Virus record (IMG/VR): IMGVR_UViG_3300043436_003321
Location: 1-26,529 of that record
Direction: 5' to 3' (one strand)
DNA from: a virus
Lineage: Duplodnaviria; Heunggongvirae; Uroviricota; Caudoviricetes
DNA length: 26,529 nucleotides
The position numbers and the translations under genes are program-made. The notes beneath the pieces were generated by a model that ran no database searches, was not told the origin of the DNA, and saw only the letters and a list, made by a program, of their open reading frames with translations. Positions 1,899 to 9,462 of this stretch are shown piece after piece. Numbering within the stretch: position 1 is the stretch's first letter; each line of letters starts with the position of its first letter.

Positions 1899-2153
1899 TT
1901 ATCTATAGGCCAATGGTGTGCAAAGAAGTGAGTCGCTTGGTGAACATGCAATAGTATCTGTTGGTTCTTTTGCCACGATTTCCACAAATCCAGCCGGAAT
2001 TGTAAAGGTCCCAATGGTGCCGCCAGTATTAGCAACTGTAACCACCGAATTTGCCGTAGCATATACTCTTACAAGTGATGCAAGACTGATGTTGTTAGCA
2101 GTAGTATTAGCTGTAAACTGCGACCCTTTAACTTTGAGAATAATATCAACCAT
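1899..2153 (-). CDS. Small hypothetical beta-rich protein between the gp68 position and gp21
   Basis: 84 aa ORF; its ATG overlaps the upstream stop (TAATG at 2151-2155), which suggests translational coupling. Confidence 0.7.
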   Translation of the reverse strand: MVDIILKVKGSQFTANTTANNISLASLVRVYATANSVVTVANTGGTIGTFTIPAGFVEIVAKEPTDTIACSPSDSLLCTPLAYR

Positions 2154-3487
2154 TATACTGCTTCCTTTGCAAACGCTAGGATTTCGTTAAACCCTTTGGC
2201 ATCCGACATCAGACGTTCTTCCATCTTTTTCTTATTTGAAGAATTGAGTTCATTGAAGAGAGCATTCAGAGTCAATGCCTGTTCTGAAGTGAGTTTTACA
2301 GATGAACCATCACTCAATTTCATAGCACCTGCCTTAAAGGCTTCGTCCATATATTCTTCCATTTTATTGGCAGCTCTATTTAAACCAGTGACACGATTTT
2401 GTCCCTGCTTATAATCTTTAGATGTTAAGGTACCTTTATCAAGCTTTTCTCTTTTACTTTTTAGATCAAGAGCGGCTTTGGCGTGGTAGTTACGAAGAGT
2501 TTCTTGTGAAACTTCATCAAGAGCAACTTCTTCCATTACATAGACGGTTGAGTGACCATGTTTCTTTGCCCACTGCTGTGCAGACTTTTTAGCATCAGAG
2601 AACTTACCACTAGGAGCTGAATACACTTCCTTTTCGTTCTTATGATCTACATCACCCATAGCCTTGTGAGTGAACATCCAAGAACCCGTACCCCCGGAAG
2701 CCTTCTTACCGTGCGATCTTAGGTAACGGTCATGACGAACTTCAATAGCTTCATCGAGGTCGACTTCTTCCTTTGTAGCAAGAACTTTAGCTCTGCCGGT
2801 TTGCTTATCAAATGCTAGGTCGCGACCAAACTTACGCTTACGATACTTATCAGAACCATCATCACCTGATGGTTGATCTGCAAATGCTTTCTGACGATAT
2901 ACATCTAGTTTCTTATCTGATACTTCATCAAGTTCAACTTCCTCGTTAACTTTTTGTACGTGCTTTGATTGAAACACAGTGTTAGGAACGTTTGATTTCA
3001 TGTGACCTGCATCTATGGCTGCCTTCTGCGCCTTTCTAATAGCTTCACCGGCAGTTCTGGCTTTCACCTTGTAACTCTTAGTAGACTTGGTTGGGTGTTG
3101 CACATTCCATGTTGAGTGCGTCATAGCTTCATCAAGTTCGGCTTCTTCTTTCATGGCAGATTTAGTAGCAGTAGCATACATTACTGATTTCCATCTATCA
3201 CCATAACGCTTTTGGAAGTCAGCTTTATTCTTTTTCATGCCCTTTACAATATCTTCACGCTTTTTCATTTCAGCATCTGACATTGTTTCTTCATATACCG
3301 AAGCATCTTCGCCATCATGAAGTGAAGCTTTTTTGCTTTTATCTTTCTTGATATTTTTTACTGAAAGCTGGTCAGGCTTTCCAGCTGGATAATCAATTAT
3401 CTGAACAGTGTGCTTATCAATAAATTCTTTTTGACGACGTGGTGTCGGATCAGTAAGTTCACTGATGATGTCCTTAAATGTTTTCAT
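2153..3487 (-). CDS. Prohead core protein at the gp68 position, expanded to a 444-aa modular protein with repeated EE-x-x-LDE linkers (putative internal-protein polyprotein)
   Basis: Syntenic with T4 gene 68. C-terminal domain (KLSDGSSVKL...LFNELNSSNKKKM...F.EILAFA) resembles gp68-like proteins. N-terminus MKTFKDIISE. Five acidic linkers at aa 114-120, 182-188, 240-246, 319-325 and 377-382. Confidence 0.75.
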   Translation of the reverse strand: MKTFKDIISELTDPTPRRQKEFIDKHTVQIIDYPAGKPDQLSVKNIKKDKSKKASLHDGEDASVYEETMSDAEMKKREDIVKGMKKNKADFQKRYGDRWKSVMYATATKSAMKEEAELDEAMTHSTWNVQHPTKSTKSYKVKARTAGEAIRKAQKAAIDAGHMKSNVPNTVFQSKHVQKVNEEVELDEVSDKKLDVYRQKAFADQPSGDDGSDKYRKRKFGRDLAFDKQTGRAKVLATKEEVDLDEAIEVRHDRYLRSHGKKASGGTGSWMFTHKAMGDVDHKNEKEVYSAPSGKFSDAKKSAQQWAKKHGHSTVYVMEEVALDEVSQETLRNYHAKAALDLKSKREKLDKGTLTSKDYKQGQNRVTGLNRAANKMEEYMDEAFKAGAMKLSDGSSVKLTSEQALTLNALFNELNSSNKKKMEERLMSDAKGFNEILAFAKEAV

Positions 3488-3743
3488 CCTCGGGTTCCTC
3501 TATATCTAGGTTTTCTAAATCTTCAACATCATCATCGTCTTCTACGTCTGAATCCTCAAGCTCATCATCATCTAATTCTTCATCGGAGTCGTATAATGAT
3601 TGTGCTAATTCTTCTCTACGAGCTTCAATAGCAGCGGCCATTTTTGCTTGGATTACATCATTAAAAGCATTTTGTACATCAACTGGGCTGCCATTGTGTG
3701 CGGCCTTAATAATATCTGCAATTGTCATAGGTTCCATATTCAT
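3474..3743 (-). CDS. gp67: Prohead core protein (gp67-like)
   Basis: 89 aa, helical N-terminal half plus very acidic tail, immediately downstream of the portal gene; exact start Met uncertain (MNMEPM). Confidence 0.75.
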   Translation of the reverse strand: MNMEPMTIADIIKAAHNGSPVDVQNAFNDVIQAKMAAAIEARREELAQSLYDSDEELDDDELEDSDVEDDDDVEDLENLDIEEPEDENI

Positions 3744-3767: not shown

Positions 3768-5309
3768 TTATTTCACAACTTTAACTGGAGTTGGCTTTGG
3801 TTCAGGTTCGGGCTCTGGTTCTGGAGCATCCTTTGCCTCTTGTTCCATTTCCATATCTATATCCTTAATATCCTCATCTGATTGACGAAGAATATTTTTA
3901 CGAATCCACTTCTTTGAGTAATACTCGCCTGAGTAGTCATTAATTGCTTGTAATGTCTGAAGTCTTTGAGTAAGAATTTCCTGCTCTTTAAGTTCTTCAA
4001 AATGATTGTCTTGTTGAAAATCATAGCGAATGTTGTTTTTAATTTCTTTCCATTCATCAATTGTCATAACATTTTTAAGGACAAGTTGCTTTTCCAAAAT
4101 CTCATCAAACAGAATAGAGAATCTTACACGAAGGCGGCGAATAAACTTATTAAATTTGACTTCATCTCGTGAAATTTCTGATGCACGACCCAATGAGAAT
4201 CCAGTATCCGATTCCATTCTTGAAATAGGAACATTAAGTGCTTTATAAAGATTCTTTTGAAAATAGAGAATATCATCAATTTCACCTAGATTTGCACCGC
4301 CAGGTAATGTGGTAATCTCTGTACCACGCTCACCATTTCGGCGGGTCATCCAAAAATCTTCAAGCATTGTCATGTGCTTACGGTCGTCTCGGACTTCACC
4401 AGTTGATGCATCATATACCAAACGATTCTTATGACGAACCATCATATCACGAAGATATTGTTCAGCTTTAATTTTAGGTAAATTGCCAACGTCAACATAG
4501 AAAATACGACGTTCAGGAGCTCGGGCCAATCTGTAAATGACAGCGGCATCTTCAAGCATTTTTAATTGGTTAAGAGCCTTAATTGCTTTATGAAGATTTG
4601 AAAGGACTAGAGTATTACTCTCATTTAGAATACCTGAGGTTACCTCAATAATTGAATCCGTAGCAATACGAACACCTTTTACACTTTCACCTTCAATTGA
4701 ACTTGATGTTAACTTTGTGCCGAAGCCTTTATCATTGAAAATATAATATTCATTTTTAGTTTGTGATAAGGTCGCGTCAGATGTAACATCTTTTTTCTTT
4801 GCAACTTCACGTATTTTTCTTAACTTACGTGGGTCAACATAACGAAGTTCTTGTATTCCAAGTTTAATATTTTTTTCATCAATAATTGCATGATATCTTA
4901 AGCGACCATCAACATACCATTTTTGAAATATATCATAACCTTTATTCGAAAAGTCGAGAAGATTTAATACTTCGTCAAACTCATCTGTAATTCTTTTCTT
5001 AATATTTGCCGAAAGATCGGTATCATCAAGATTAATTTCTACTACTTTTGAGTCATCAGCAACAACAATAGATTCATTTACAATATCATCTATGGCTCTG
5101 GAAACTTCCGGGTGCATTTCCATTAAACGATATCTTGTAATGAGTTCTGCTTCAGACTTTGCAGTACCTTCCATATCAAGAAATGCACCATAACCAGGCA
5201 TGCTGGTCGATGCTGAAACATTTACTGCGCCGTCATCATCCTCACGTTCCACGAAGGACTTCAGATCAGTATTATCTTTTCTCTTGATTTCAAAGCCAAA
5301 AAGTTGCAT
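3768..5309 (-). CDS. gp20: Portal vertex protein
   Basis: 513 aa; MQLFGFEI start, WYVDGR, LEDAAVIYRLARAPERRIFYVDVGNLPK.KAEQY, MLEDFW, GTEITTLPGG, LNVP.SR, RDEVKF.KF..RLR..F motifs. Confidence 0.98.
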   Translation of the reverse strand: MQLFGFEIKRKDNTDLKSFVEREDDDGAVNVSASTSMPGYGAFLDMEGTAKSEAELITRYRLMEMHPEVSRAIDDIVNESIVVADDSKVVEINLDDTDLSANIKKRITDEFDEVLNLLDFSNKGYDIFQKWYVDGRLRYHAIIDEKNIKLGIQELRYVDPRKLRKIREVAKKKDVTSDATLSQTKNEYYIFNDKGFGTKLTSSSIEGESVKGVRIATDSIIEVTSGILNESNTLVLSNLHKAIKALNQLKMLEDAAVIYRLARAPERRIFYVDVGNLPKIKAEQYLRDMMVRHKNRLVYDASTGEVRDDRKHMTMLEDFWMTRRNGERGTEITTLPGGANLGEIDDILYFQKNLYKALNVPISRMESDTGFSLGRASEISRDEVKFNKFIRRLRVRFSILFDEILEKQLVLKNVMTIDEWKEIKNNIRYDFQQDNHFEELKEQEILTQRLQTLQAINDYSGEYYSKKWIRKNILRQSDEDIKDIDMEMEQEAKDAPEPEPEPEPKPTPVKVVK

Positions 5310-5371: not shown

Positions 5372-5926
5372 TTAGGCTTGAGTACCTGCGTCGCCGGTAT
5401 TACCGCCAACGACACTCCACCAATCGTATTGGAATGTAACATCAAATGTTTCGATTACATCTGTAGTACTCCAATCCATCGCAATACCAGTAATGTCTGA
5501 TGGATACAGACCATTAAACTGATATGTGCGAAGGGTTTCGCCAGTTTTAGAATATTGTATAATTTGAGCTTGAGCCTTATAAAGCGCGGGCGCAGCACCA
5601 CCAGTAAGTCTTAGGTTACCTTGGTGCGAATTGATTGCACTCATCCACTGTTCCATGGCGTTACGAATAAGAAAATCTTCATCATTCATAACAGTAACAG
5701 TCCATGGTTGGAAAGTACGATCCCCAGCGATTTTGATCTTACGACCAAAATATGGAATTTCAATTGTTCCTAGCGCTGATTCTGGAATTTGAGCCGCCTG
5801 AACCATAAATGGCACCTTAATGTCTGCAACTCCATTAATTGGGTTCTGAATTTGAACCTGGAAGTTTGCAGCTTTAGCACCACCATAAGTCAGTTGGCTC
5901 TTCATTTCGTTGATATTAAAAGCCAT
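5372..5926 (-). CDS. gp19: Tail tube protein
   Basis: 184 aa; LG.IEIPYFGRKIKIAGDRTF.PWT.T..ND.DF..R...E.W and IETFDVTF.YD.W motifs. Confidence 0.96.
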   Translation of the reverse strand: MAFNINEMKSQLTYGGAKAANFQVQIQNPINGVADIKVPFMVQAAQIPESALGTIEIPYFGRKIKIAGDRTFQPWTVTVMNDEDFLIRNAMEQWMSAINSHQGNLRLTGGAAPALYKAQAQIIQYSKTGETLRTYQFNGLYPSDITGIAMDWSTTDVIETFDVTFQYDWWSVVGGNTGDAGTQA

Positions 5927-5952: not shown

Positions 5953-7773
5953 TTAGAACTGACCTACGATTTCTTCAAATTCTACACCAGTGCGAACAGC
6001 AACAAAGTTGAGTTGGATGTAGTTAATTGAGCGAGCAGGCTTGATGTAAATATCACCAACAAACTCGTTTCTATCAATTACCTCACCAGTGTTGTTTGTA
6101 TCGTCGCATACAACTCTAAAATCATAGATACCACGGCGACCTTGTACGTCACGTAGGAATGGTTCTACCAGGTTTTTGAATTGTGCACGAGTAAATGCAT
6201 CGTTAAATTCAAATAGAGTTGATCTAGCAGCACGAGCAATTGCTTTTTCAAGAACGATAAACAGACGACGAACGTTAATGCGGTCAAATGCACTATCTAA
6301 GCCAGACAATGTTCTGTCACCAAATAGAAGTGTTCCTTGACCAGGTTGTGTAATTACTGGGTTAACACCAGCAGGATAGAGAATGTCGCGTTGTGCTTTA
6401 TTTGGATTGAAGGCTAGTTTTACAACGTTTTTAATGATACCACGGTTGTAACCAGCTGGTGACCACCAAGGATCTCTATCGTTATCAGTACGAGCGGCTA
6501 GTCCAGCCATATCGCCATTCAATGGAGTGTAACGATACTTATCATTGTACTTATCGTAGCGATATTTGTACCCTGAATCCATGACAGCATATGTTGAACT
6601 GCTTAGAGCAGTTCTGAAGGCAATTATTGCATCAATCTCGCCACCAACTGCTACACTACCTGGAACAACATCAGCTGCGGCAGGTGAAATATACGCCACA
6701 CAATCTCTGCGTGATTCTACAATATTGTCAATGATGTAATTTGCAAGACCTGTGTCGTCAGTTCCGTGACCAGCTTTACCCTGAAGAATTAGTGAAATGT
6801 CAATATCCTCGGCGGATGCAAACAAATCATATCCTTCGGCAAGATCACCAAGTGTAACGGTTGATTCGGTAGCACCATCAGTACCGCCAGCCATAGATAT
6901 ATATGCTGCCACGTTGTTTGCAGTTACTGCAGTACCAGTTGAACGGATCCAGCGGCTTTGTGTATCAATAACATCTTTATAATAGACTGAAGCGCCTTGA
7001 CTGCTTTTGACACCTGATGCGATTGCGACATTTTCATATACTTCCAAAATGCTGCCAGCAACACCAGAGATGCCACCATCTTCGTCAATAACTGCCGCAT
7101 GGAATCTACCAGAAGTTGGAGCAGCACTTACATTTTTATAGAATCCCCATTTTCTAGTTGCAGCAGCGGCAGATAGAGCTGCTTTTAGACTTAACTTTTG
7201 AGCAAAAGTAACAGTAGTACTGACAACTGAGGTAACAGTGAGATCCTGGAATCCAATAGCGTTCGAACCTACACGTAGAATATCTCCAGGCGCAAGGTTA
7301 GCTGCATCGGTAACAGTTGCAGTAACTGCACCAACTGACATTGTGACACCAGAAATAGCAAAACTATATGCGTTAGCGGTAGTGCAAGTTGACACCTCAA
7401 GATTATTACCTATAGCACCTGGCCATTTAGCAATAAACTGTCCGATAGTGGTATTCGATACGGTATCAATATACTGTCCTGCAGTACCAGTTCCAACAGC
7501 ATTGTTAGCATCGGATGAAACTACGCGAACTGTATATAGTTTATTTGAGTATGATAGAAAATCTGCTGCAGTAAAGAATGTTTCTGCATTATTATCAGTT
7601 GGTTTACCGAAACGCGCTACTAGATCACTTTCTGACGTAACTAGGGTTCTTTCCAATACTGGACCCCAATTAAATACACCAGCAATAGCAGCTTCAGTAG
7701 TACCCACGGCTGGTACGACAGTAGTTAAATCGAATTCACTTACATTAATACCTGGACTTACTTGAAAGGCCAT
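5953..7773 (-). CDS. gp18: Contractile tail sheath protein
   Basis: 606 aa; SPG..V.E.D, G.F.WGP, W.SPAG.NRG, L.GDRT, FDRINVRRLF, FEFND..TR..F, V.CD..NNT, IKP.RSIN.I.LNFVA motifs. Confidence 0.98.
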   Translation of the reverse strand: MAFQVSPGINVSEFDLTTVVPAVGTTEAAIAGVFNWGPVLERTLVTSESDLVARFGKPTDNNAETFFTAADFLSYSNKLYTVRVVSSDANNAVGTGTAGQYIDTVSNTTIGQFIAKWPGAIGNNLEVSTCTTANAYSFAISGVTMSVGAVTATVTDAANLAPGDILRVGSNAIGFQDLTVTSVVSTTVTFAQKLSLKAALSAAAATRKWGFYKNVSAAPTSGRFHAAVIDEDGGISGVAGSILEVYENVAIASGVKSSQGASVYYKDVIDTQSRWIRSTGTAVTANNVAAYISMAGGTDGATESTVTLGDLAEGYDLFASAEDIDISLILQGKAGHGTDDTGLANYIIDNIVESRRDCVAYISPAAADVVPGSVAVGGEIDAIIAFRTALSSSTYAVMDSGYKYRYDKYNDKYRYTPLNGDMAGLAARTDNDRDPWWSPAGYNRGIIKNVVKLAFNPNKAQRDILYPAGVNPVITQPGQGTLLFGDRTLSGLDSAFDRINVRRLFIVLEKAIARAARSTLFEFNDAFTRAQFKNLVEPFLRDVQGRRGIYDFRVVCDDTNNTGEVIDRNEFVGDIYIKPARSINYIQLNFVAVRTGVEFEEIVGQF

Positions 7774-7851: not shown

Positions 7852-9462
7852 TCAGAAAGTGATCCAGTTTTGCTGCACAGTATCAATTATATCCGGCTCA
7901 TCATGGCCAGTATTTAAAAATCCTAGAGGAAGCATGTCTGCCTCCATATCTTCTTCAGTCTTTTCTCGCAATTTGGCAAGAGTATTTATGTCTGTCATTT
8001 CTCTGAAATATTTTTGATCTGATAGCCATGCAAAAAGAACCAGACACATTACCATATCATCATGTGTACCAGATTCAGCCTCGTAACTTCCACCCTTACG
8101 AGAAAATGTTGACAACTCATTAATGGTATGATAATCATTAAGAATAAGTTGATCTTGTTCTACAAGTAGTTTCAAAACACTACAGCCAATGGCTTTTACA
8201 GATTTTGTAGTTCTGACACCTATCTCGGATGTCTTACCGCCACTCGAGATAATCTTACCGGATCTGCCATTATTTTGTGTGAAAAGAATGTTTTCATATT
8301 CGTAATCATATTGTAAAGCTTCAGCCACCTGTTGGCCAATATCATTAATTTCAACTAGAATAGCGGCTTCATTATAAGCTTTGACTATTCGGAAGATAAG
8401 TTCTGCATAGTCAAGAGGTGTTATAAAGTTATTACGATATGATAAAACCTGACGATACGGCATTTGCGTTACATCAATTATCTGAAATGCAGAATAGTCA
8501 AGTCCACGACCTCGTGAAACGTCGACAACGCAACTGTATACATGGCCGACTTTGGGTTCTTCATATACGCTAATATCGTTTGTCGAACTTATCGGTTCTT
8601 TGATTACAAGCGCTTTAAGTTTAGAACCAGTGATAAGAGTACCAGACGAACCTTGGAATTCACATTCAAATTCCTGAGCAAACTTCTGTAGGTCAAAATC
8701 CATACCAGATAGAGTTTCTTGTCTCCATTTCTCATCTCGGCCAGGTACTTTATACCAAGGAACCTCAATATAACCATAGCCGTTTGCCCCAGTTTTGGCA
8801 CCTTCACATGTCTTATAGAAATGATTTAAGCCATTCGGAGTTGACGTAAAGAGAATCTTGGTTGTTTTACCTGATGAAATTGTCGGGAACACAGAGGCGA
8901 AGAATTCGTCCCAGCCTTCAACGAATGCCGTTTCGTCGATGTACAAGAACGAAATAGATTGACCACGAATAGCAGATCCTGATGTTGCCGCCGCAATAAT
9001 TCTGGATCCATTTTCAAATTCAACCGAACCTTTGTTCCATTCAATGACGCCTTGTTGCAACCATTTTGGTAATGCTTCAAATGCAGTCTGAATACGAGAA
9101 AGGATTTCACGAGCCGCATCACCTTTGTTAGCCAATAGTGCAATTGTCTTATAGTCATTAAACATTGCATAATGTAGAATTACCACAACGGCGGTGGTAG
9201 TTTTACCGGCCTGACGTGATGTATTGACTGCTACTCGACGACCATCAGTAATCTCTCTAATGATATCTTTCTGATATTCATACAATTCAATTGGAATAAG
9301 TCCGTGGTCGACGTGTACAATCTGAATATACTTTTCGGCAAAATAGATTGGATCGTTTGCACATTTTAAGTATTCTTGAAGAAGCTCTGCTGTCCATTCA
9401 ATGGCAACATTCTTCTTCTTTAAATTGGAATTACCACGAAAGCCATCTTCAATCTGATTCAT
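7852..9462 (-). CDS. gp17: Terminase large subunit
   Basis: 536 aa; Walker A SRQAGKTT, Walker B LYIDETAF, motif III TSTPNG, nuclease DVSRG.G.DYSA and HDD.VM; no intein or intron apparent. Confidence 0.98.
   Translation of the reverse strand: MNQIEDGFRGNSNLKKKNVAIEWTAELLQEYLKCANDPIYFAEKYIQIVHVDHGLIPIELYEYQKDIIREITDGRRVAVNTSRQAGKTTTAVVVILHYAMFNDYKTIALLANKGDAAREILSRIQTAFEALPKWLQQGVIEWNKGSVEFENGSRIIAAATSGSAIRGQSISFLYIDETAFVEGWDEFFASVFPTISSGKTTKILFTSTPNGLNHFYKTCEGAKTGANGYGYIEVPWYKVPGRDEKWRQETLSGMDFDLQKFAQEFECEFQGSSGTLITGSKLKALVIKEPISSTNDISVYEEPKVGHVYSCVVDVSRGRGLDYSAFQIIDVTQMPYRQVLSYRNNFITPLDYAELIFRIVKAYNEAAILVEINDIGQQVAEALQYDYEYENILFTQNNGRSGKIISSGGKTSEIGVRTTKSVKAIGCSVLKLLVEQDQLILNDYHTINELSTFSRKGGSYEAESGTHDDMVMCLVLFAWLSDQKYFREMTDINTLAKLREKTEEDMEADMLPLGFLNTGHDEPDIIDTVQQNWITF

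Follow-up and report, generated by a model that had tools for sequence, protein, structure and literature searches.

Here we report the analysis of a 26,529-nucleotide (nt) stretch of viral DNA (hereafter the window; positions 1 to 26,529 of the IMG/VR record IMGVR_UViG_3300043436_003321, class Caudoviricetes), which makes up the initial 26.5 kb of a viral contig of 90.5 kb estimated to be 53% complete. The minus strand of the window carries a T4-type late operon extending from the terminase through the start of gp23, and the position of T4 gene 68 is taken in it by an open reading frame (ORF) of 444 amino acids (aa) at 2153-3487. The encoded protein combines a short leader of the capsid-targeting type with a string of small basic modules, which are separated by repeated acidic linkers and enclosed by conserved N- and C-terminal domains. 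Judging from its sequence, we consider it probable that this protein is, as a polyprotein precursor, taken up into the prohead core and cleaved there by the gp21-type protease, with the basic pieces staying in the head and leaving it together with the DNA.

The leader MKTFKDIISE (aa 1-10; 3458-3487; all features of this gene lie on the minus strand) ends with I-S-E. It is followed by the conserved N domain (aa 11-67; 3287-3457), which matches phrog_26626 (expectation value (E) 5.6e-11) and ends with VYEE (aa 64-67), and by five modules, each delimited here together with the linker at its end: module A (aa 68-120; 3128-3286; phrog_12788, E 1.3e-9) with linker 1, EEAELDE (aa 114-120; 3128-3148); module B (aa 121-188; 2924-3127) with linker 2, EEVELDE (aa 182-188; 2924-2944); module C (aa 189-246; 2750-2923) with linker 3, EEVDLDE (aa 240-246; 2750-2770); module D (aa 247-325; 2513-2749), which contains six histidines, with linker 4, EEVALDE (aa 319-325; 2513-2533); and module E (aa 326-382; 2342-2512) with the weaker linker 5, EEYMDE (aa 377-382; 2342-2359). 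The conserved C-terminal domain F (aa 383-444; 2156-2341) matches the C-terminal end of phrog_4187. The cores of modules A-E, taken without linkers, measure 46, 61, 51, 72, and 51 aa and have net charges of +7, +9, +6, +6, and +7, and linkers 1-5 are directly followed by A, V, A, V, and A, respectively. An initial annotation of this DNA had placed every linker at exactly these positions and had correctly read LDE-A and LDE-V at the junctions, and its 62-aa C-terminal domain stands as well; its module sizes of about 47, 62, 52, 73, and 52 aa are replaced by the recounted core lengths, and its hand-counted net charges for modules A and B (+6 and +8) were each one unit too low.

The linker motif E[ED]xx[LIVMF][DE]E is present in four copies in the 444-aa protein. 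Among 200,000 composition-preserving shuffles, 197,178 contained no copy, 2,808 contained one, 14 contained two, and three or more copies were never obtained. Elsewhere in the 90.5-kb contig the motif occurs in one other ORF as a single copy, and scanning this approximately 53% complete contig for it revealed no second array gene. The DNA that encodes the linkers constitutes a four-copy family of 27-nt direct repeats with 70-100% identity.

Relatives of the polyprotein are abundant, and all of them are metagenomic. A word-indexed search returned more than 936 matches of 257-769 aa, while an exhaustive search at E <=0.001 found at least 2,817 relatives, counted as representative clusters at the 50% level and ranging from 91 to more than 1,000 aa. 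The architecture was analyzed in 235 of these relatives, to which the counts below refer. When the seven parts of the studied protein were mapped onto them, the N domain (1-67) and domain F (383-444) proved to be the fixed ends, with modules A-E and many others between them in varying number and order, as the initial annotation had proposed looking for in orthologues. The N domain stands at the N-terminus of 134 relatives and domain F at the C-terminus of 150; in 130 both ends are in place and enclose 53-810 aa. Cutting these proteins in silico at [LIM]-x-E sites in acidic context yielded 1,278 segments with a sharp length peak at 45-90 aa (median 70), which fall into 282 clusters. The module cores of the family have a median net charge of +6, and 94% of them are positive. 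The commonest module type (cluster 0; about 58 aa, 275 members) includes modules C and E, module B is rare, with five matches, and module D is up to 95% identical within otherwise different proteins. A second class of arrays, which have neither the N nor the F domain, was observed outside the head operon in T4-like contigs (for example, protein P0016 at L002:6001-6930), near genes for PG_binding, DHFR, and thymidylate synthase proteins. These second-class arrays begin with a short leader that runs into a linker, such as MKRFxKFVxESIExxELDE followed by A.

The linkers were compared with the specificity of the T4 prohead protease, which cleaves after Glu in L/I-x-E motifs (PMC9026906). The 444-aa protein contains exactly five [LI]-x-E sites, namely, the I-S-E of the leader (residues 8-10) and the L-D-E of four linkers, in contrast to the gp22 scaffold, which has 15 such sites in 314 aa and, by analogy with T4, is expected to be broken down to short peptides. 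The T4 major capsid protein gp23 matures between E and A of F-L-T-E-A (residues 62-66), and gp23 of this phage has L-L-N-E-A at residues 53-57. The linkers, which the initial annotation had regarded as prohead-protease sites, are consistent in sequence with both the gp21 rule and this predicted maturation site. The putative protease carries the GELxHP and GVSSRG blocks conserved with T4 gp21, and its intact S77 gene lies 266 nt downstream of the polyprotein gene; the two genes had been described as adjacent, which does not hold, as an 84-aa ORF intervenes. The arrangement corresponds to what is required of a polyprotein, in that a conserved motif of a virus-encoded protease recurs at the domain boundaries, where cleavage is predicted.

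The cut motif is conserved throughout the family. In the relatives, the linker consensus reads K-E-E-V-E/D-L-D/E-E, with A or V as the next residue. Of 686 sites of the form EE[VATSI][ED], a pattern that leaves the last three residues unforced, 619 precede [LI]-x-E at an offset of +0 or +1: 395 at +0 (358 of them [LI][DE]E) and 224 at +1 (220 of them [LI][DE]E). Since L-x-E is kept at +1 as well as at +0, the cut motif of the linker outlasts a one-residue insertion. Alanine follows 37% of the linker sites, compared with a background of 9.9%, and the fifth junction, where the studied protein has EEYMDE, shows the canonical L-D-E before the C-terminal domain in relatives.

The interior of the modules presents the opposite picture. 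A first depletion test was confounded by a strict linker pattern that left weaker linkers within the cores, and a broader junction rule with a bias correction was adopted instead. In 191 non-redundant module cores stripped of their linker, and with the count restricted to sites that the junction rule would spare, we found 34 [LI]-x-E sites against 54.7 expected (ratio 0.62); one of 1,000 shuffles gave a value as low. The control ratios were 0.92 for [LI]-x-D, 1.12 for [LI]-x-Q, and 0.97 for [AG]-x-E; the ratio for [VM]-x-E was 0.73. Rarity of [LI]-x-E inside the modules would be expected if they face a Glu-specific protease and must survive it.

The leader resembles MKTYQEFIAE, the shared start of the T4 internal proteins IPII and IPIII (sequences from NC_000866). 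In T4, the first 10 residues of the capsid-targeting sequence are enough for loading into the head (PMC9026906, citing Mullaney and Black 1996). When a profile of 26 N domains was compared with T4 IPIII using hhalign, only residues 1-12 were aligned (E 0.0077). Positions M1, K2, and E10 are almost invariant in these 26 relatives, and the leader pattern fits 152 of the 235 relatives. These comparisons largely support the presence of a T4-type capsid-targeting tag on the polyprotein, from which its loading into the head is predicted.

Near-identical phages carry different module sets, with breakpoints at the linkers. In contig L014, the portal protein and gp21 are 99.2% and 98.6% identical to those of the studied phage at the aa level, while the polyprotein is 54.5% identical; the corresponding values in L015 are 96.7%, 95.9%, and 60.5%. 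In L016, where gp21 lies beyond the contig, the portal protein is 96.1% and the polyprotein 71.8% identical. The blocks of DNA similarity have their ends on linkers, at aa 120-121, about 237-246, about 318-325, and about 376-382. Modules C and D are in swapped order in L016, and module B is absent from both L014 and L016. The 27-nt linker-coding repeat is a plausible substrate for such cassette exchange.

Several modules behave as units of their own. As whole-protein alignment with MAFFT heaped module fragments on one region and was discarded, modules C and D were folded singly. For module D (30 sequences in alignment A3, with a mean column identity of 77%), AlphaFold2 predicted a beta-alpha-beta-beta-alpha-beta fold with a predicted local distance difference test score (pLDDT) of 82 and a predicted template-modelling score (pTM) of 0.70, and for the module C type (alignment A6; 46 diverse sequences), three helices with a mean pLDDT of 70; in both models the last four residues scored below 50. 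Per-module structure prediction, which had been suggested as a check of the modular reading, thus yields a confident fold for module D and a moderate one for module C, each with a linker end that is predicted to be disordered. For the entire protein, the model in the ESM Atlas scores a pTM of 0.23 and a pLDDT of 0.58, values that fit independent beads. In the same resource, viral protein clusters of 75 and 81 aa share the module D fold, and in the relative P0222 a 10-aa leader is fused straight to module D, which is the layout of a T4 internal protein. The Pfam domain DUF3008 (E 1e-20) constitutes a whole module in P0030 (152-207) and in P0087, and the linker of P0030 starts two residues past the end of the domain. 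Modules were thus found as standalone small proteins, which had been named beforehand as a possible support for the modular reading, in the form of the leader-led single module, the free-standing 75-81-aa clusters, and the complete DUF3008 unit.

Two further observations concern the module sequences. Certain modules of relatives (P0033:354-406, P0073:158-212, and P0030:152-207) match small-protein families that are cellular or widespread, among them, besides DUF3008, a helical stretch resembling HWE histidine kinases (E 4e-8). The module A motif KKREDIVKGMKK...YGD.WKSVMYATATK also occurs within the cyanophage hypothetical proteins P-RSM4_119 and S-B43 QDH50537 and within gp457 of the 440-kb Salicola phage SCTP-2 (loci L011:2468-3139, L012:2108-2917, and L013:1187-2824), and the leader of SCTP-2 gp457 ends with LNQLDE before an A. 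Searches for cultured phages, among them searches of 50,697 deposited phage records, gave matches only to this module A, within proteins of cyanophages and a Salicola phage, and to the N domain, within the phiM12 group. No Pfam domain above threshold was found in the 444-aa protein, and Pfam searches of 70 long relatives returned only DUF3008, DUF7443, the HWE_HK-like stretch, and ApoLp-III. PDB yielded no match in sequence searches with the whole protein and the module C profile, nor in a fold search with module D at E <=0.001, and a BFVD fold search with module D returned one unnamed viral protein of 67 aa (template-modelling score 0.65-0.75).

The frame around the modules exists in nature on its own. 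In the Sinorhizobium phage phiM12, the hypothetical 135-aa protein gp070 (SmphiM12_070), encoded between the portal protein and gp21, consists of the N and F domains only, without modules. Its residues 1-68 are 40% identical to the N domain (E 1e-12), and its residues 80-133 match domain F in hhalign (probability 94%, E 1.2e-7). In the deposited phage records, the N domain was found only in the Sinorhizobium phiM12 group, and F was undetected by tblastn. The array is best read, from these matches, as an insertion platform inside a phiM12-type core protein. The initial annotation had instead tied the protein to T4 gp68; the locus between genes 67 and 21 agrees with this, whereas similarity to gp68 itself was not detected. 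BLASTP gave an E of 0.23, hhalign probabilities were 0.4% for N and 0.1% for F, so that the C-terminal domain is not detectably gp68-like, and gp68 belongs to phrog_1049, while the studied protein matches phrog_26626, 12788, and 4187. A short EFIxKH match between aa 21-27 of the N domain (3406-3426) and residues 67-73 of T4 gp68 (L005:3024-3449) is below significance (hhalign probability 0.4%), although it could hint at a very remote kinship of the two proteins at this locus; across the family, residues F22, K25, and H26 of the N domain vary little or not at all.

The surrounding genes, all on the minus strand, follow the T4 head operon. Upstream of the polyprotein gene lie the genes for the terminase large subunit (7852-9462), sheath (5953-7773), tube (5372-5926), portal protein (3768-5309; Portal_T4, E 6.6e-172), and an 89-aa acidic prohead core protein with the layout of T4 gp67 (3474-3743; phrog_1064 'prohead', E 2.5e-8). 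Downstream are a conserved 84-aa ORF (1899-2153; phrog_19805), the gp21-type prohead serine protease (1222-1887; Pfam Peptidase_S77, E 1.4e-32; phrog_207, E 3e-79), the 314-aa gp22 scaffold (226-1170; T4_CASP, E 3.6e-72), and the start of gp23 (3-176) with the L-N-E-A site likened above to the T4 maturation site. The gene order is thus 20, 67-like, polyprotein gene, 84-aa ORF, 21, 22, 23. The polyprotein gene overlaps both neighbors: the gp67-like gene overlaps its start by 14 nt, and the start of the 84-aa ORF overlaps its stop codon. The same context, namely portal, (gp67-like), polyprotein gene, an ORF of 74-84 aa, gp21, gp22, and gp23, is shared by L001, L003, and L014-L016. By portal protein, the closest cultured relatives are the Sinorhizobium phiM12 group, Stenotrophomonas phage DLP6, cyanophages, and one pelagiphage (53-57% identity). 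The 84-aa ORF contains no [LI]-x-E, is 98.8% identical in L014, and belongs to a phrog without known function; its site corresponds to no T4 gene and is occupied by a different protein of 74-78 aa in L001 and in the pelagiphage Mosig. In Pelagibacter phage Mosig, the interval from portal to gp21 (L009:6523-8023) contains, in place of a single polyprotein gene, five separate ORFs of 75-130 aa, in which loading tags are not obvious.

Starting from the observed repeat motif, leader match, conserved frame, module exchange, cut-motif avoidance, and fold predictions for two modules, we infer the loading, cleavage, retention, ejection, and function of the polyprotein as follows. The leader, perhaps together with N and F, would dock the precursor into the assembling core. 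The gp21 protease would then take off the leader and cleave after the L-D-E of every linker. The predicted products are the leader (aa 1-10); N joined to A (aa 11-120), or N and A apart if VYEE is cut; B, C, and D as pieces of 58-79 aa; and E joined to F, or the two apart if M-D-E is cut. The released basic pieces, of 6-12 kDa and thus comparable in size and charge to T4 IPI* and IPII*, would probably remain with the packaged DNA and enter the host with it. A single tag would in this way bring several cargoes into the head in equal amounts, and cassette exchange at the linker repeats could alter which cargoes are present. It is plausible, by analogy, that the modules serve in DNA charge neutralization, in counter-defence, or in both. 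The initial annotation had already proposed DNA-binding and anti-defence roles for them; our analysis did not support these roles, which derive only from charge and from the analogy with T4 Ip1-3.

Several observations weigh against the loaded, cleaved, and ejected precursor. No module has an annotated function in the Pfam, PHROG, PDB, and BFVD searches, and a linker-separated array was not found in cultured phages among the 50,697 deposited records. The leader match is short, covering 10-12 residues with an E of 0.0077 in one comparison, and two junctions of the studied protein, VYEE and EEYMDE, are without L or I at the third residue before the cut (P3). The depletion test depends on a junction rule defined by us, and its shuffles are blind to secondary-structure preferences. 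Each released module would keep its acidic tail and have a net charge of only +1 to +4, nearly neutral; since the tail cancels the charge, the DNA-binding argument is weaker unless the tail is trimmed. A second cut that does so is speculative; three of the five linkers have V or M two residues ahead of the first Glu. Finally, the T4 core proteins gp22, gp67, and gp68 undergo cleavage at several sites and their fragments for the most part leave the head (PMC9026906, PMC5694885), so that retention of the pieces is an assumption at a locus whose T4 gp67 and gp68 fragments mostly exit.

The last point leads to the alternative that the protein is an accessory scaffold or core component, a functional counterpart of gp68, whose linker cuts serve clearance and whose fragments leave before packaging. 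The gene's place within the 67-21 interval of the head operon fits this alternative as well as the fate of the T4 core proteins does, the commonest module type is predicted to be helical and scaffold-like, and the conserved N and F domains by themselves make up the phiM12 protein. A part that determines head geometry would, however, not be expected to vary in module content at a 99% identical portal protein and a 98.6% identical protease. Avoidance of cut motifs inside the modules preserves defined pieces of 50-80 aa, while gp22 has its 15 sites in 314 aa; the same modules recur behind short leaders outside the head operon and as free-standing small proteins; and the cores are strongly basic. 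We regard clearance as an unlikely explanation, though the most serious of the rivals.

It is more doubtful still that the protein is packaged uncut as beads on a string, at most with its leader removed, the acidic heptads being flexible charge-balancing spacers. The linkers are predicted to be disordered, each of them roughly offsets the charge of its module, the ESM Atlas scores are those of independent beads, and large uncleaved polyvalent proteins do exist in virions (PMC5512222). Yet a spacer needs no invariant Leu at P3 and Glu at P1 that outlast a one-residue insertion, nor does it explain the preference for Ala after the site or the avoidance of [LI]-x-E, but not of [LI]-x-D or [LI]-x-Q, inside the modules. 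Least credible of all, and in our view very improbable, is a cytoplasmic late protein outside the head, with acidic motifs for, e.g., protein-protein docking and a coincidental likeness of its tag and cut sites. The tag and the cut motif are both short, and packaging of the polyprotein is predicted rather than directly demonstrated; on the other hand, the position in the head-core operon is fixed in all five contexts read, the gene overlaps both neighbors, the tag hardly varies at M1, K2, and E10, and tag, cut motif, and protease co-occur.

The tagged and cleaved precursor that we favor can be compared with several known systems. The textbook example of proteins that a phage injects along with its DNA is that of the T4 internal proteins. 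Like IPI, IPII, and IPIII, the polyprotein has a 10-residue leader of the MKT[YF]xx[FI]IxE type that ends with [LI]-x-E and belongs to a T4-like phage with an S77 protease, and like IPI* and IPII*, its predicted products are small and basic (about 6-9 kDa) and highly diverse among related phages. In T4, however, each cargo has its own leader and is encoded by a separate gene in hypervariable loci, whereas a single leader is followed here by five to seven units that share one frame and are separated by internal acidic cut-site linkers, the gene is part of the head-core operon and places its units between conserved N and C domains, and similarity to IPI-III is limited to the leader. T4 Ip1-3 inhibit GmrSD, and all three block type IV restriction enzymes (PMC12373910). 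With T4 gp68 the polyprotein shares the locus between genes 67 and 21 and the expected cutting by gp21 at several sites, and the phiM12 form is similar in length (135 aa versus 141 aa of gp68); homology is undetectable, and the exchangeable module array is absent from gp68. The phiM12 gp070 protein is an N and F homologue at the same locus, from which, unlike in the studied phage, modules are absent.

Polyvalent proteins of phages and conjugative elements (Iyer et al. 2017, PMC5512222) likewise combine many unrelated domains in one polypeptide, are presumed to be delivered with the DNA, and are extensively shuffled, and proteolytic release was proposed for some of them. They differ in being large, with recognizable enzymatic or anti-restriction domains and often embedded peptidases, while the arrays described here consist of basic modules of 45-90 aa without known domains, have uniform repeated linkers, and would be cut by a separately encoded prohead protease. 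Head proteins of the giant phages phiKZ, 201phi2-1, and SPN3US, which gp21-like proteases process, show cuts after Glu at short motifs, several per substrate, and propeptides by which ejection proteins are directed to the head (PMC5694885, PMC9026906). There, however, the multiple sites lie in long discarded propeptides, and cargo arrays with uniform linkers are not described in these two papers.

A broader generalization, which we offer as a possibility on the tentative side, is that uncultured T4-like phages of aquatic and other habitats use one tag to load a string of unrelated mini-proteins, which would be freed by the prohead protease at a universal acidic linker and co-ejected as a multi-part kit for counter-defence or DNA protection. 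The linker repeats would serve as recombination points at which modules are swapped, in a manner comparable to the exchange of entire ip genes among T-even phages. Searches of the full-text literature found no report of internal-protein arrays that are led by a tag and separated by linkers. To our knowledge, T4-type internal proteins have been studied almost only in coliphages and as one tag per protein.

If the proposed reading is true, a tailed phage can use polyprotein logic with a uniform linker, and the family would provide a collection of several hundred small effector candidates whose boundaries are defined and which would be fit for expression screens against defence systems, as well as a natural design for multi-cargo loading of T4-type capsids via one tag. 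Protein co-injection would then be a large and fast-evolving component of the arms race that T4-like phages of the environment take part in, given a family of at least 2,817 clusters at the 50% level, module types that number in the hundreds, and exchange between strains.

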